4,488 bases of DNA, from the IMG/VR virus record IMGVR_UViG_3300029512_000078. One strand, 5' to 3'. Shown piece after piece: positions 1 to 4,488 of this stretch. Below the pieces are notes generated by a model that was given only the letters and a program-made list of their open reading frames with translations, searched no databases and was not told the origin of the DNA. Both the position numbers and the translations under genes were made by a program. Position 1 is the stretch's first letter; each line of letters opens with the position of its first letter. This stretch comes from a virus (lineage: Duplodnaviria; Heunggongvirae; Uroviricota; Caudoviricetes).

Positions 1-788
1 ATGGTATTGAAGTTCGTCGTGATGCTTATGGGCGTTACAGCCTGAACGATCTGCACAGGGCAGCCGGGGGAGAACAAAAAAACCGCCCGAAATACTGGAT
101 CTCCAATAAGCAAACCTGTGAATTGATTGAACAACTTTTCACCGAGGGTGGAATTCCGCCTCTGGAACAAAATCAACCAGTTAGCGTCATTAATGGCGGA
201 AATAACCAGGGGACGTATGTCTGCAAAGAACTGGTGTATGCCTATGCAATGTGGATCAGCCCGTCATTCCATCTGAAGGTGATCCGTACTTTCGACATGG
301 TAACCAGCGCACCGGAAAAATTATCCGGACAGGCTGCTGACAAGATGCAGGCTGGCGTGATCCTGCTGGACTTTATGCGCCGGGAATTAAATCTGTCTAA
401 CTCATCAGTGCTTGGAGCCTGTCAGAAGCTTCAGGAGGCTGTTGGCTTACCGAATCTGGCACCGCGCTATGCCATTGATGCTCCTGCTGATGCACACGAT
501 GGCTCAAGTCGCCCGACACTGTCACTGAGTGCACTGTTGAAACAGTATGGTATCCGCCTGACGGCTAATCAGGCATATCACCAGATGGTGAAGCTGGGGA
601 TCGTTGAACAACGCGAACGATACAGCCGTACCGCGATTAACAACATCAAAAAATTCTGGTCGCTGACCGCGAAAGGCTGCATGTTCGGCAAGAACATCAC
701 CAGTCCTGCAAATCCGCGCGAGACGCAGCCGCATTTCTTCGAATCCCGATTTCCTGAGCTGTTAAAGCTGCTCGATACCGTTCATTGA
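1..788 (+). CDS. KilA-N domain / phage antirepressor-like protein, 5'-partial (gene starts upstream of window)
   Basis: Frame beginning at nt 3 is open with no stop until TGA 786-788. The TTG at 123 used by the ORF track is probably internal, since the upstream in-frame translation (GIEVRRDAYGRYSLNDLHRAAGG...KYWISNKQTCELIEQL...GGNNQGTYVCKELVYAYAMWISPSFHLKV) matches the KilA-N core pattern (GG..QGTW/YV...A..FA.W.SP.F). The C-terminal half resembles KilA-C/antirepressor C-terminal regions. Family assignment is from memory of domain patterns. Confidence 0.7.
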   Translation, partial: GIEVRRDAYGRYSLNDLHRAAGGEQKNRPKYWISNKQTCELIEQLFTEGGIPPLEQNQPVSVINGGNNQGTYVCKELVYAYAMWISPSFHLKVIRTFDMVTSAPEKLSGQAADKMQAGVILLDFMRRELNLSNSSVLGACQKLQEAVGLPNLAPRYAIDAPADAHDGSSRPTLSLSALLKQYGIRLTANQAYHQMVKLGIVEQRERYSRTAINNIKKFWSLTAKGCMFGKNITSPANPRETQPHFFESRFPELLKLLDTVH

Positions 789-789
789 G

Positions 790-1785
790 GTGACTGTGAG
801 AGCACTACTGACCCCTGAAATTGCCCCGCGTATGGGGATCGTATTGTTCAGACCCGGTTCAGAGCTGATGCCCCTGTTTATGCAGGGGCGTGTCCTGCTG
901 GAGCCTGAGCCGGAGCGTTATTCATCTTTCGCCAGTGGTGCCGTTCCGGCGGCATCACAACCGCTGGCGGATGATCCTGCCGTTCGGGCCGTGTTCCGCA
1001 ATGAGGCAGTGATCCGTCGTGCTGGTGGTGTGGAATGTCTTGAAAGCTGGTTACTTCGTGAAAAGGGCTGTCAGTGGCCTCATTCCGGCTGGCACAGCGA
1101 GAACATGACAACAATGCGACACGCGCCGGGCGCAATCCGTCTGTGCTGGCACTGCGATAACCAGTTGCGCGATCAGTTCACGGAACGGCTGGAATCAATG
1201 GCAACGGATAACTGTGCCCGCTGGGTGTTGTCTGTTGTGCGTCGGGATCTCGGTTTTGATGACAGTCACGTTGTGACAATGCCTGAACTGTGCTGGTGGC
1301 TGATTCGTAATGATCTGGCGGATGCCTTACCGGAAAGTGCAGCCCGTAAGGCACTGAGATTACCGAAGCCTGTTGTGCCGTCTGTCACCCGGGAAAGTGA
1401 TCTTGTGCCTTCGGTTCCTGCCACCAGCATCATCCAGGATAAAGCGAAAAAGGTGCTGGCGCTGAAAGTGGATCCGGAGTCGCCGGAGTCTTTTATGTTA
1501 CGCCCAAAACGTCGCCGCTGGGTTAATGAAAAGTACACGCGCTGGGTTAAGACGCAGCCGTGCGCATGTTGCGGAAAGCCTGCTGATGATGCCCACCACC
1601 TGATTGGTCATGGTCAGGGTGGAATGGGTACAAAAGCGCATGACCTTTTTGTGTTGCCTTTGTGCAGAAAACACCATGACGAACTGCATGCGGATACCGT
1701 GGCATTTGAAGAGAAGTATGGTTCCCAACTGGAGCTGATATTTCGTTTTATCGATCGCGCGCTGGCGATTGGTGTGCTGTCCTGA
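790..1785 (+). CDS. DUF968-type prophage protein (YdfU-like) with C-terminal HNH-like Zn-finger/His-Me motif
   Basis: 331-codon ORF starting with GTG at 790, one nt after the upstream stop (possible translational coupling); the alternative ATG at 832 has no obvious SD. C-terminus [21 protein letters not shown]...[17 protein letters not shown] fits the HNH pattern CxxCG..HH..GG..N/H..LCxxH..H. Position between antirepressor-like gene and Q matches where DUF968 genes sit in lambdoid prophages (recalled, not searched). Confidence 0.7.
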
Positions 1786-1802
1786 TTTTGTGGAGAAAGT
1801 TG

Positions 1803-2186
1803 ATGCGTGATATTCAGATGGTTCTTGAACGCTGGGGTGCATGGGCGGCAAATAATCATGAGGATGTGACCTGGTCGTCCATTGCTGCCGGTTTTAAGGG
1901 ATTAATTCCTTCAAAAGTAAAATCTCGCCTGCAATGTTGTGACGATGACGCGATGATCATTTGCGGGTGCATGGCCCGTCTGAAAAAGAACAACAGCGAT
2001 TTACACGATTTATTAGTAGATTATTATGTATGTGGTATGACATTCATGTCACTGGCAAGTAAGCATTGCTGCTCGGATGGTTATATCGGGAAAAGGTTAC
2101 AGAAGGCTGAGGGCATAATTGAAGGGATGTTAATGACATTAGATATCCGGTTAGATATGGATATCGTTGCTAATAATTCTAATTGA
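1803..2186 (+). CDS. quuD: Late-gene transcription antiterminator Q (phage 82 / DLP12 QuuD-like family)
   Basis: 127-aa product [26 protein letters not shown]...[16 protein letters not shown]...[17 protein letters not shown], recognised as Q82-family antiterminator with Cys-rich Zn-binding motifs. ATG at 1803 is preceded by GGAG (1792-1795) at 7-nt spacing; the ORF-track start at 1788 is a TTG and less likely. Symbol is by resemblance to the E. coli K-12 DLP12 gene; the upstream genes differ from K-12 DLP12, so locus identity is uncertain. Confidence 0.8.
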
Positions 2187-2209
2187 TATGCAATTGTTTA
2201 CTAAAAGTT

Positions 2210-2237
2210 ATTAAAAATGGGGCGTGGAAACGCCCCC
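2210..2237 (-). terminator. Candidate intrinsic terminator for minus-strand transcripts (7-bp GC stem, GNRA-like loop, U-run)
   Basis: Plus strand GGGGCGT-GGAA-ACGCCCC (2219-2236); on the minus strand the hairpin is followed by ATTTTTAA (complement of 2211-2218). On the plus strand no T-run follows, so it is unidirectional for the minus strand. Lies about 150 nt downstream of the porin stop, across an N-gap. Confidence 0.45.
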
Positions 2238-2280
2238 AAAATAAAGGGTAATATATAACAGAAGGTTTATATAGTAAGAA

Positions 2281-2311
2281 NNNNNNNNNNNNNNNNNNNN
2301 NNNNNNNNNNN
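2281..2311. other. Run of 31 undetermined bases (N)
   Basis: Directly visible in sequence; content unknown. Confidence 1.
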
Positions 2312-2333
2312 AAGTGGCTTGAGGGCTCCACTT

Positions 2334-2374
2334 ATATGTTGCGGAGGCAAAGCCTCCCGCAACATATCTTTTTC
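2334..2374 (+). terminator. Rho-independent terminator for plus-strand transcripts (candidate tR'-like late terminator downstream of Q)
   Basis: ATATGTTGCGGAGGC-AAA-GCCTCCCGCAACATAT forms a roughly 15-bp stem with one bulged C, followed on the plus strand by CTTTTTC (2368-2374). On the minus strand the hairpin is preceded by an A-run and not followed by a T-run. A shorter hairpin AAGTGG...CCACTT (2312-2333) lies immediately upstream. Confidence 0.6.
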
Positions 2375-2384
2375 GTAAGTCAGA

Positions 2385-3467
2385 TTAGAACTGATAAACC
2401 AGACCTACAGCGGCGATGTCGTCGGTATCAATACCAGCTGTTTTGGTAAACTTACTATCGTCAATTAAGTTGATTTTGTAATCAACAAAAGTGGACATGT
2501 TTTTATTAAAGTAGTAAGTAGCACCGACATCGACATACTTGACTAAGTCTCGGTCACCATGAACACCAAGGTCTTTACCTTTTGACTGAAGGTAAGCAAC
2601 AGATGGGCGCAGACCGAAGTCAAACTGATATTGTGCTACTGCTTCAAAGTTTTGTGCTTTGTTTGCAATATGGTTATTACCAAAAACGGTCATATTCTGA
2701 GTTTCAGAATATGTGGTAGCCAGATAGATATTGTTCGCATCATATTTCAGGCCTGCAGCCCATACTTCCGCATTTTTGCCGGAGGCATTGAATTTGCTCT
2801 TACCATAGGCGACCTGACCGTCAGTGCGATCTGATTTAGCATAGGTTGCACCCACGCCGAATCCTTCATACTCATAAGTAGTGGAGAAACCGAAACCATC
2901 ACCATTGGCTTCAGTTACGTCAGTGCGGTCATTTTTACCCTGATACTGAGCAGCAAAGTTCAGGCCATCGACCAGACCAAAGAAGTCGTTGTTACGATAA
3001 GTTGCAACACCAGTTGCACGTTGAGTCATGAACACGTCGGTTTGAGTCCAAGTGTCACCACCGAATTCTGGCAGGACGTCAGTCCACGCACCGATGTCGT
3101 ATGCTACACCGTAGTTACGGCCGTAATCGATGGAGCCGTAGTCACCGAATTTCAGGCCAGCGAAGGCAAGACGGGTTTTATCTTTGGAGGAACCTTGAGA
3201 TTCAGCGCGGTTGCCTTTGAATTCATATTCCCACTGACCGAAACCAGTCAGTTGATCGTTGATTTGGGTTTCACCTTTGAAGCCAAGACGGGCATAAGTA
3301 GTATCACCATCATCTGCATCATTAGAGGAGAAGTAGTGCTTAGCATTAACTTTCCCGTACAGATCCAGCTTGTTACTGTCTTTATTATAAATTTCAGCTG
3401 CCTGAGCAGACATCGCCATCAGTACTGATGCAGCTACAGCAGAAATTGCCACTGTTAATTTTTTCAT
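2385..3467 (-). CDS. nmpC: Outer-membrane general porin (OmpC/OmpF/PhoE/NmpC family), prophage-encoded moron
   Basis: 360-aa product starting [23 protein letters not shown] (signal peptide, AQA-AE cleavage) then [17 protein letters not shown]..., contains the L3 constriction motif PEFGG and ends in the OMP beta-signal ...VGLVYQF. The ORF-track N-terminal extension to 3527 ([11 protein letters not shown]...) is rejected in favour of ATG 3465-3467. Symbol by analogy with the DLP12 porin located between quuD and essD; could equally be another prophage porin paralog. Confidence 0.9.
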
Positions 3468-3737
3468 CGTGAGCCCTTTTTTTGAACTATTATTAAAAAA
3501 TGATGTCACTGCGCGATAAATATTCATCTAATCAATGTGATTATTTCAAGATGTAAGTTTTGGTTTCTCGTTTGATTTGTGAAGTAGATCTCTATTTTTA
3601 TCTGAACTTTTTTCTATCGAATCCTATTCATGGCTCTTGGCTGAATAAAAATAAATCTATTAGCCAATTTATATTAATGTCTGTTATTTATAAGTGCTCT
3701 ATAATTTGAAGGTTCAATTTAAACCGGCTAAAAATAA
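3468..3737 (-). promoter_or_regulatory. AT-rich upstream region of porin gene (promoter/5'UTR; likely binding sites for nucleoid or porin regulators)
   Basis: About 270 bp of strongly AT-rich DNA with many A/T tracts immediately upstream of the porin start on the minus strand. Exact -35/-10 not assignable because too many near-consensus hexamers occur in such AT-rich DNA. Confidence 0.4.
3700..3705 (+). promoter_or_regulatory. Perfect TATAAT -10 hexamer on plus strand (candidate late promoter pR'-like or divergent promoter); weak -35
   Basis: TATAAT at 3700-3705; the best -35 at 17-bp spacing is poor (ATGTCT). A transcript starting near 3712 would end at the 3887-3919 terminator after about 200 nt, similar in length to lambda 6S RNA (194 nt). 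Chance occurrence in AT-rich DNA is quite possible. Confidence 0.25.
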
Positions 3738-3747
3738 NNNNNNNNNN
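3738..3747. other. Run of 10 undetermined bases (N)
   Basis: Directly visible in sequence. Confidence 1.
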
Positions 3748-3828
3748 GGTTATTTGTTGAGATTTGCTTATGTATTTGTAGTGGTGTTTTCAATACTCGG
3801 TAGCATTCTCGCAAATATCATTTAGTGG

Positions 3829-3842
3829 TTTACGTACGTAAA
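3829..3842. repeat. 14-bp perfect palindrome TTTACGTACGTAAA (candidate operator for a dimeric DNA-binding protein)
   Basis: Sequence 3829-3842 is its own reverse complement. It overlaps a weak plus-strand promoter-like arrangement (TTTACG, 16 bp, TATGCT at 3851-3856). Confidence 0.35.
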
Positions 3843-3886
3843 AAATTGGTTATGCTATTAAGAGTGGTCACTTCGTCACACAGCTT

Positions 3887-3919
3887 AAACCCGCCGTCGA
3901 GCGGGTTTTTCCATTTTTT
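3887..3919 (+). terminator. Rho-independent terminator on plus strand upstream of holin gene (second tR' candidate)
   Basis: AAACCCGC-CGTCGA-GCGGGTTT stem-loop (3887-3908) followed by TTCCATTTTTTG (T-run to 3919). Confidence 0.6.
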
Positions 3920-4031
3920 GAGTCTCGATATTAGCTGATAACCCAATACCTGAGTTATTCACTGACTCCGAGTCTGTTACGTTTCGTAGTATTCCCTCAA
4001 TTTACACCCGCTTTGTCTGCGAGGTGGGGTT

Positions 4032-4247
4032 ATGAAATCCATGGATAAGTTAACAACGGGTGTCGCCTATGGCACCTCAGCAGGTAGTGCCGGATACTGG
4101 TTTTTACAGCTGCTAGATAAAGTCACGCCCTCACAGTGGGCGGCAATTGGAGTGCTGGGTAGCCTGGTATTTGGCCTGCTGACGTACCTGACAAACCTTT
4201 ATTTCAAGATTAAAGAAGATAAGCGCAAGGCTGCGAGAGGTGGATAA
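4032..4247 (+). CDS. essD: Class II holin (phage 21 S21-type pinholin) with dual-start motif
   Basis: 71-aa product [71 protein letters not shown], with two TM segments and a charged C-terminus, closely resembling S21/EssD as recalled. Met1-Lys-Ser-Met4 gives starts at 4032 and 4041 (antiholin S71 / holin S68 arrangement). SD GAGGTG at 4021-4026. Confidence 0.9.
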
Positions 4248-4488
4248 TGCCTCCATCATTACGAAAAGCTGTTGCTGCTGCTATTGGTGGCGGGGCTATT
4301 GCTATAGCATCTGTGTTAATCACTGGCCCAAGTGGTAACGATGGTCTGGAAGGTGTCAGTTACATACCATACAAAGATATTGTTGGCGTATGGACTGTAT
4401 GTCACGGACACACCGGAAAAGACATTATGCTCGGTAAAACGTATACCGAAGCAGAATGCAAAGCCCTCCTGAATAAAGACCTTGCCAC
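4247..4488 (+). CDS. rrrD: SAR endolysin (phage 21 R21 / T4-lysozyme-type), 3'-partial, runs off window end
   Basis: ATG at 4247-4249 overlaps the holin stop (TAATG). Open frame to the window end encodes [59 protein letters not shown]..., with a Gly/Ala-rich signal-anchor-release helix followed by the catalytic E-x8-D-x5-T triad (E in LEG, D in KDI, T in WTV). Absent from the ORF track only because no stop falls in the window. Confidence 0.9.

Follow-up and report, generated by a model that had tools for sequence, protein, structure and literature searches.

The analysed DNA (the window) is a stretch of 4,488 nucleotides of the IMG/VR record IMGVR_UViG_3300029512_000078, and all coordinates below are window positions. 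It covers the late-control region of a lambdoid prophage. The Q antiterminator gene (plus strand, 1803-2186) encodes a protein of 127 amino acids from the QuuD/Q933W clade (PF06530, E=2.6e-53). About 1.85 kb further lie the lysis genes, namely the gene of an S21-type (P21-type) holin (plus strand, 4032-4247; PF04971, E=2e-35; start MKSM) and that of a signal-anchor-release (SAR) type lysozyme, which begins at 4247 and is cut by the window end at 4488 (plus strand; PF00959). The single gene in the Q-to-holin gap encodes a porin and lies on the minus strand (2385-3467). An earlier reading of this DNA from the letters alone (the sequence-only reading) had assumed that the late promoter PR' adjoins Q, so that Q-antiterminated transcription would have to pass antisense through the whole porin gene to reach the lysis genes S and R. 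The comparisons described below point to a PR' on the far side of the porin.

The predicted PR' is located on the plus strand at 3829-3856, with the -35 box TTTACG (3829-3834) and the -10 box TATGCT (3851-3856). The promoter has the form TTTACG-N16-TATGCT and encloses the palindrome TACGTACGTA (plus strand, 3831-3840), which is followed by an A tract and is the candidate Q-binding element. Then comes a leader (plus strand, 3860-3920) with the -10-like hexamer AAGAGT (3860-3865), the predicted start at A3861-A3863, and a hairpin (3887-3908) with the T-rich tail TTTTTCCATTTTTT. The hairpin was flagged by the terminator scan and is the candidate tR'. The assignment is based on homology, not on consensus strength. 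In the Shiga toxin (Stx) phage Sp5, the Q stop codon is directly followed by TTTACGATCGTAAAAATCTGCATATCATGATA-AGAGTGGTTAC and then by a hairpin with a T7 run, and the homologue of the promoter is TTTACGATCGTAAAAATCTGCATATCAT. This post-Q sequence, TTTACGATCGTAAAAATCTGCATATCATGATAAGAGTGGTTACATTGCCACGCAGTCGAACCCGCCGATGCGCGGGTTTTTTT, can be aligned position by position with window 3829-3920 (TTTACGTACGTAAAAAATTGGTTATGCTATTAAGAGTGGTCACTTCG…). According to Sy et al. (PMC7547250), the primary start of the Sp5 PR' transcript was mapped by differential RNA sequencing (dRNA-seq), its 3' end was mapped by Term-seq 258 nt downstream, and the promoter is constitutively active. Counting these 258 nt back from the T run of the Sp5 terminator leads to the AGA of AGAGTGG, and by homology the start in the window would therefore be A3861-A3863.

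A single copy of the motif TTTACRWWCGTAAAAA is present in the window (0.02 expected by chance), and no second copy of the leader was found there. The region between Q and the porin was also inspected in a 99.3%-identical E. coli chromosome, in which the bases masked in the window can be read, and no promoter-like site was found there either. Thus the lysis genes would be driven from a predicted promoter downstream of the porin, since the only module of this kind (3829-3920) lies between the porin start codon and the holin gene. The sequence-only reading had itself named such a promoter as evidence contrary to its model. Most likely, late transcription does not cross the porin.

The Q protein itself is 94% identical to QuuD of DLP12 and 80-83% identical to the Q proteins of VT2-Sakai/Sp5, BP-4795 and many Stx1 and Stx2 phages, and it has a distant match to the Q21 structures (E=1.4e-6). 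The Q protein of DLP12 was reported as controlling the S-R-Rz operon of that prophage (PMC7918800).

The spacer between the porin and the holin was compared with other phages by blastn. Only the segment at about 3828-3910 is shared with phages that have no porin (phiP27, SfII, SfIV, cdtI and several Stx phages). In these phages Q is followed by 1.3-1.6 kb of unrelated genes, and the segment comes after them, ahead of the late genes. A TAnnnT hexamer precedes the sequence TTAAGAGTGGT(T/C)ACTTCG(C/T)CACACAGCTTAAACCCGCC…GGGTTTTT, which is nearly invariant even though these phages have Q proteins only 46-49% identical to that of the window. The predicted layout is analogous to PR'/qut/tR' of phage lambda, where the promoter has a Q site between the -35 and -10 boxes and is followed by a -10-like hexamer at the start and then by a terminator. 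The leader AAGAGTGG-TCACTTCG, that is, AAGAGTGG-T(C/T)ACTTCG, resembles lambda AACGATGGGTTAATTCG with its -10-like sigma-70 pause element. In the hexamer AAGAGT the key A (position 2) and T (position 6) are present, and the 10 bases after it are similar to the pause region of lambda; this is a resemblance of sequences only.

In detail, the first 16 bases of the leader (window 3860-3886 was compared with lambda L212, 138-156) resemble the initial transcribed region of lambda PR', with AAGAGT in place of AACGAT followed by GG(G)TTA(A/C)TTCG. The 6S RNA of lambda also contains GGTCACTTCGAC, similar to window 3866-3877.

The position of the leader relative to Q was measured in 120 IMG/VR loci found by a pattern scan for the leader. 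In six insert-free loci the leader starts 63-64 bp from the end of Q. When the insert is a porin, the distance is always about 1673-1692 bp, and with other inserts it is 535, 635, 866, 1122, 1198, about 1490-1724, 1960, 2326, 2481 or 2960 bp. The six loci with 63-64 bp demonstrate that the canonical layout, Q and then PR', exists in this Q family, in which the porin is one among many possible inserts. No insert separates Q from the PR' module in Sp5, in these six loci, in a Morganella phage and in a Klebsiella phage. On the other hand, in SfII, cdtI and WGPS2 the cargo begins only 4-25 bp after the Q stop codon, which leaves no room for a promoter next to Q, and the conserved module is beyond the cargo. 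In E. coli phage 1H12 a lipocalin gene and a YbgA-like gene stand between Q and the motif, which is 1.9 kb away from Q. The window segment 2187-2384 is conserved with PA-2 and DLP12 and absent from porin-less relatives, and is therefore a part of the porin cassette.

The interval 2187-3826 can be described as a cargo bay. In relatives it holds at least 17-20 different inserts, 0.5-3 kb long and with a guanine plus cytosine (GC) content of 33-42%. Nearly all their genes are on the minus strand, one plus-strand exception being found in phiP27. The loci examined were L012, L014, L018, L025, L034, L040, L041, L065, L073, L074, L099, L100 and L117. PADLOC identified Kiwa KwaA/KwaB (L014), PDC-S20 (L065), PDC-S42 (L018) and a PDC-M68A-like HNH protein (L034). 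It also recognised a C5 methyltransferase with an ATPase-Toprim/OLD-like (HEC-04) protein in L099, and several two-gene inserts have no match. A scan of IMG/VR seeded with the Q protein returned only close porin-type relatives (at least 91%) and so is not an unbiased sample; it was substituted by tblastn identity bands in a phage collection and by hand-picked distant phages. The slot between Q and PR' was not found described as a defence hotspot in a short literature search, too shallow for a claim of novelty.

Relatives with a different Q share window positions 1-1849 at 92-96% identity, diverge from about codon 16 of Q, and become similar again at 3833/3858. As identity breaks inside Q and resumes at the promoter, the body of Q, the cargo and the promoter seem to move as one unit. 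The mosaic joints can be set at 1849-1851 and 3833-3858, and relatives from different Q clades become similar again from the -10 box or the start of PR'. The exchange would have two nearly invariant anchors, namely the first 16 or so codons of Q and the PR' leader, which would face the host polymerase.

The palindrome just upstream of the -10 box, followed by the A tract, depends on the Q clade. It is TACG[AT][AT]CGTA in the QuuD/933W clade (TACAATCGTA in two cases), GCGGTCCGC in the cdtI clade (GCGTTCCGC in one locus), GCGTACGC in the SfII/WGPS2 clade and GGAATTCC in phiP27. The variants seen across relatives include TACGTACGTA, TACGATCGTA, GCGGTCCGC, GCGTACGC, GGAATTCC and ATTCGTTACGAAT; the loci compared were L003-L006, L013, L041, L117, L129, L208, L209 and L211. 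The palindrome type follows the Q clade in nearly every locus with a Q call, over about 22 classes of cargo. In the Morganella phage, with a Q protein 64% identical to that of the window, the same palindrome is found directly after Q. In the Klebsiella phage, with a Q protein 42% identical, Q is followed by a palindrome of its own and then by the same leader. Phage 1H12 conforms to the association as well. Since the palindrome stays with the Q clade whatever the cargo, it is a candidate Q-binding element. One possibility is that the leader is invariant because it faces the host polymerase, and the palindrome is variable because it faces Q.

Taken with the position of the module, these comparisons make it highly probable that the Q open reading frame (ORF) and Q's own late promoter are separated by a cargo bay, and that the porin cassette sits in this bay and is insulated from Q-dependent transcription. 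The chances are about even for the more general proposal that a Q gene and its DNA site are split by a swappable bay, that the body of Q, the cargo and the palindrome with its promoter are exchanged as one block, and that the porin with IpeX, the commonest occupant in E. coli, is receptor-swapping defence cargo kept outside the late transcript, so as to be on in the lysogen and unaffected by Q.

Several observations weigh against this assignment. The start site in this phage and in DLP12 is set by homology, the transcript being mapped only in the Sp5 homologue. The PR' hexamers agree with the sigma-70 consensus in only 8 of 12 bases, and the simple promoter scan missed them, in the window as in the unmasked relative. 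In Sp5 the 258-nt RNA passes the hairpin homologous to 3887-3908, so the efficiency of the only candidate tR' is uncertain. The association of the palindromes with Q clades could partly reflect linkage and not function. Finally, the literature on DLP12 describes an RpoE-type promoter that conflicts with the PR' assignment, and N-antiterminated early transcription could still cross the porin. The last two points lead to separate explanations.

Antisense transcription of the porin after induction could come from the early rightward operon, in addition to transcription from the downstream PR'. Polymerase modified by the N protein would ignore the hairpin at 2334-2372 and collide with transcription of the porin. 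Indeed, N-modified polymerase of lambda ignores terminators. The Q gene and the genes upstream of it, encoding a KilA-N protein (plus strand, 123-788) and a DUF968/HNH protein (plus strand, 790-1785), both identified by ORF and profile searches, are co-oriented and aimed at the porin 3' end, and a strong plus-strand terminator-like hairpin is located at this boundary, as expected if read-through were a real hazard. However, the window contains no N gene, nut site or early promoter, and the effect would not depend on Q. We consider such transcription possible, though rather unlikely.

Another explanation makes essDp, the RpoE-dependent promoter of DLP12, the main promoter of the lysis genes, with Q cooperating with sigma-E. 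The transcript would then cross the porin upstream region and the hairpin at 3887-3908. The "SRRz/Rz1 regulatory region" was cloned as -121 to +650 after Rueggeberg 2015, and the operon is cited as controlled by RpoE and Q (PMC7918800). The primers of that study map to window 3395 and to K-12 essD, and the 771-bp amplicon puts the start at about 3516. A sigma-E-like pair, GAACTA (3484-3489) and TCACT (3506-3510) separated by N16 on the plus strand, is situated at the right distance. The promoter lies 20-50 bp from the porin ATG, with the start at about 49 bp, and is divergent from the porin, and the transcript would run head-on through the porin upstream region. However, this site belongs to the porin cassette, and relatives of the same Q family that carry no porin lack it, although they too need a Q-responsive promoter. 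The Q-clade palindrome is 315 bp downstream of the essDp start, which does not fit the promoter-proximal loading described for Q21. A genomic survey by systematic evolution of ligands by exponential enrichment (SELEX) has no RpoE site at essD, and only an RpoS-holoenzyme peak in the insH-essD spacer. The explanation thus appears improbable, and essDp is possibly an additional stress-responsive promoter, not the target of Q. A text search of the literature found no nmpC-essD intergenic transcripts. Either way, with essDp too, transcription of S starts beyond the porin ORF.

The layout assumed in the sequence-only reading, with PR' right after Q (about 2187-2330, partly under an N run), tR' at 2334-2372, and Q-modified polymerase proceeding antisense through the porin to S and R and silencing it after induction, has in its favour that Q genes are usually followed directly by PR', as in lambda and Sp5, that the hairpin at 2334-2367 is very stable and has a plus-strand T run, and that the N run conceals 21 bases, but it is very improbable, as the concealed bases are unremarkable in the unmasked relative, the Q-clade-specific promoter motif and leader are found only at 3829-3920, and the points made above on the absence of a promoter-like site between Q and the porin, on the cargo adjoining Q in SfII, cdtI and WGPS2, and on 2187-2384 being porin cassette all speak against it.

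With PR' assigned to 3829-3856, the porin cassette can be considered by itself. The porin (minus strand, start at 3467, stop codon 2385-2387) is a protein of the Lc/NmpC type, identified from its ORF, profiles, structures and alignment. It is taken here as 360 amino acids, the 380-residue ORF starting at 3527 being a mechanical first-ATG call only. The Porin_1 profile (PF00267) matches residues 29-360 over its positions 1-337 of 337 (E=1.5e-151), and the NCBIfam model of the porin OmpC subfamily gives 521.8 bits at a cut-off of 484. The best solved structures are OmpC chains (E about 1e-137). Since the mature OmpC chains align from residue 24, a signal peptide of 23 residues (minus strand, 3399-3467) fits, with the mature protein starting AEIYNK. 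The L3 motif PEFGG occupies residues 133-137, and the protein ends in VYQF with the C-terminal Phe. It is a full-length 16-strand general porin domain of the OmpC/OmpF/PhoE kind. From the 90% identity to Lc of phage PA-2, it is predicted to form a trimeric outer-membrane diffusion channel. The differences from Lc are clustered at residues about 181-190, 215-232, 263-268 and 335-351, mainly in blocks that look like surface loops.

The sequence-only reading had described a complete general-porin gene with a signal peptide on the minus strand between Q and the holin gene, in the arrangement of DLP12 nmpC, and in this it was correct, at a level far above chance. The family, position and orientation are the same in PA-2 lc and in nmpC of DLP12 (qsr'), both between Q and S-R-Rz on the opposite strand, and the layout is also found in the 434B hybrid. 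The window porin is intact, whereas the K-12 copy of nmpC is split by IS5. Copies more than 99% identical to the window porin are found in several E. coli chromosomes, so it is not a new gene; the Lc/NmpC family is known from this classical location since the 1980s (GenBank J02580). Of 5,426 complete E. coli genomes, 4,628 match the segment, 2,393 with a coverage of at least 80%, and nine records contain it at an identity of at least 99%. The same arrangement is present in isolated, plaque-forming phages (Kati, PhiR49_1, 2G7b, ev207 and others). Thus the porin is ordinary, very widespread prophage cargo, and the finding as originally stated adds little.

The porin is followed by an untranslated 3' tail (minus strand, 2212-2384, with the masked positions 2281-2311 inside). 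In a four-way alignment of the window with the 99.3%-identical E. coli prophage, K-12 DLP12 and PA-2, the tail is homologous to the IpeX-coding region of DLP12 and has a mean column identity of 88%. About 170 nt separate the stop codon from the terminator, and in K-12 the nmpC stop codon is about 162-167 nt from the minus-strand terminator. The small RNA IpeX of DLP12 was reportedly described by Castillo-Keller, Vuong and Misra in 2006. IpeX is 167 nt long, is made within the porin transcript and then processed, and lowers OmpC and OmpF (review PMC12197685). The homology and length of the tail fit IpeX, and it has no Rfam match; we infer its exact ends. At permissive thresholds Rfam gave nothing relevant in the whole window, just two chance-level matches (E 0.7-0.8), and a tRNA scan of the window gave nothing relevant.

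The porin/IpeX transcript has an intrinsic terminator predicted by the terminator scan and folding (minus strand, 2219-2236), formed by GGGGCGTTTCCACGCCCC followed by ATTTTT, the T run extending to 2213. It folds at -14.6 kcal/mol on the plus strand and -13.8 kcal/mol on the minus strand (z about -2 to -2.5) and ends 26-33 nt short of the Q stop codon. A second hairpin, with a 15-bp stem, is located just 3' of the porin stop codon (2334-2372) and has a T run on the plus strand only, its plus-strand tail being CTTTTTCG. Its folded part (2334-2367) has energies of -21.9 (plus) and -22.5 (minus) kcal/mol with z scores of -5.5 and -4.8, and none of 200 shuffled sequences was as stable. As a candidate insulator, this hairpin would hold back read-through of the early operon past Q; it may also serve as a 3' stabiliser of the porin mRNA. 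The porin had been described as a moron flanked by hairpin terminators and N runs. The terminator of its own stands, and both hairpins are real. However, both are on the Q side, and the first hairpin on the holin side is the one at 3887-3908, outside the interval 2201-3760 that the sequence-only reading had covered. The N runs are not flanking features at all, as described below.

The region upstream of the porin (minus strand, 3468-3826) is AT-rich, with 27% GC over 3451-3750. No consensus sigma-70 promoter with 9 of 12 matches was found in 3468-3826 on either strand, but just weak candidates and a CRP-like site, and the consensus scan detected no porin promoter in the unmasked relative either. 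A CRP site for which the PA-2 record has an annotation, TGTGA-N6-TCTCT, falls by alignment at about 3575-3595. The 1986 GenBank record of PA-2 (J02580.1, 1067-1087) also annotates a CRP-binding site on the stretch corresponding to window positions about 3863-3883. A role of the PR' leader as a CRP site for the porin was considered and rejected, as the same sequence is nearly invariant in phages without a porin and only one half-site matches. More likely this stretch is a part of the PR' leader.

The non-coding DNA flanking the porin is 88-95% conserved in the four-way alignments that include PA-2 and DLP12. Most likely, the porin with its tail of about 170 nt is a self-contained leftward cassette of lysogenic conversion. 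Expression in the lysogen had been predicted by the sequence-only reading, and data on porins of the Lc/NmpC type support this indirectly: the prophage copies of nmpC in CFT073 were seen as RNA and protein in uninduced cultures, and they are up at 37 C while ompC falls (PMC12890032). By analogy, the same may hold for the porin of this phage.

From the gene identities, homology, module position and association of palindromes with Q clades obtained here, and from the start mapped in Sp5, we infer the start site, terminator efficiency, Q binding and insulation in the following scheme. In the lysogen, the cassette would be transcribed leftward from the AT-rich upstream region to the hairpin and T run at 2236-2213, ending just short of Q. 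It would supply an alternative porin, with IpeX lowering OmpC and OmpF by analogy with PA-2 Lc and DLP12 NmpC/IpeX, and the changed set of porins could alter the permeability and the phage-receptor profile of the cell. PR' transcripts would start at about 3861-3863, some 395 bp past the start codon of the porin, and lead away from the porin gene. In the absence of Q, they should end at the hairpin with its T run (3887-3920). When present, Q would most likely bind to the palindrome (3831-3840), load onto the polymerase paused on the leader and carry it to S and R, S beginning about 170 nt after the predicted start. The early operon, by way of Q, would be the only source of plus-strand transcription entering the porin, and the hairpin at 2334-2372 is placed so that it could stop unmodified polymerase.

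The closest known counterpart of the module is the PR'-tR' region of Sp5 and 933W, the source of the StxS small RNA, with a homologous Q protein, promoter, palindrome, start region and first hairpin. However, the Sp5 module abuts the Q stop codon, and in the window a porin cassette of 1.64 kb is inserted between them. In addition, the Sp5 leader of 258 nt contains a second terminator and the StxS-S sequence, and the window has neither. The invariant leader RNA of about 50 nt, which would be made constitutively in lysogens, might by analogy with StxS have a function of its own. In Stx phages the stx genes are downstream of PR' and belong to the late transcript, whereas the porin is upstream of the predicted PR' and outside this transcript. 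In Q21, a distant relative of the window Q, the Q-binding element is also between the -35 and -10 boxes. However, it is a direct repeat of TGAGCA, and the candidate element of the window is a palindrome, suggesting a different geometry of binding.

In Sp5 (L129, 1217-1243), a canonical-looking terminator with a GC-rich stem of 6-8 bp and a T7 run is situated about 27-55 nt after the PR' start, yet the published PR' transcript (PMC7547250) reads through this hairpin, homologous to that at 3887-3908, and ends at the second terminator, 258 nt downstream.

The cassette resembles lambdoid morons in the Hendrix/Juhala definition, being an apparently autonomous unit of lower GC content with its own predicted terminator, placed between elements that are adjacent in relatives. 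The bay also resembles the prophage defence hotspots of the P2/P4 type (Rousset et al. 2022), as the same slot holds defence genes in relatives. However, this slot is between a regulator gene and the DNA site of the regulator, not between two genes. The porin with IpeX would fit the company of defence systems as receptor-swapping cargo. The corrected position of PR' matters, since cargo that seems to be antisense within the late operon is most likely outside it, PR' being displaced to its far side. Genes upstream of PR', such as porins and defence systems, would be expressed in the lysogen independently of Q, and those downstream, such as stx, would depend on Q and on induction. The Q-clade palindromes could serve as a simple locator of PR' in prophage annotation, and they provide candidate Q sites for a Q family without structural data.

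The window contains two N runs, and both are masking, not biology. In the 99.3%-identical E. coli chromosome, the 31 N at 2281-2311 correspond to 21 ordinary bases and the 10 N at 3738-3747 to 18. Since the lengths differ, window positions counted across these runs do not correspond to those of the real genome. A promoter or mobile element hidden by the N runs was considered and rejected, as this chromosome has short ordinary sequence there. The 21 bases behind the first run, GTAAGGTAGTGCTTCTAAAGG, are part of a small hairpin, and the 18 bases behind the second, CACTGGAAATTATTTGTT, belong to a short direct repeat, TTATTTGTTG.

The coding sequence of the porin contains, in sense orientation (minus strand, 2691-2713), a perfect 10-bp inverted repeat with a 3-nt loop and a T-rich tail (CATATTCTGAAACTCAGAATATG ACCGTTTTTG). 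It is terminator-like according to the scan and may be due to chance. The homologous lysis genes in the 434B record are annotated as antiholin/holin and SAR endolysin. The holin of the window begins with MKSMDKL (4032-4043), with two Met codons three codons apart, and a dual-start antiholin/holin arrangement is annotated for the identical gene in 434B.

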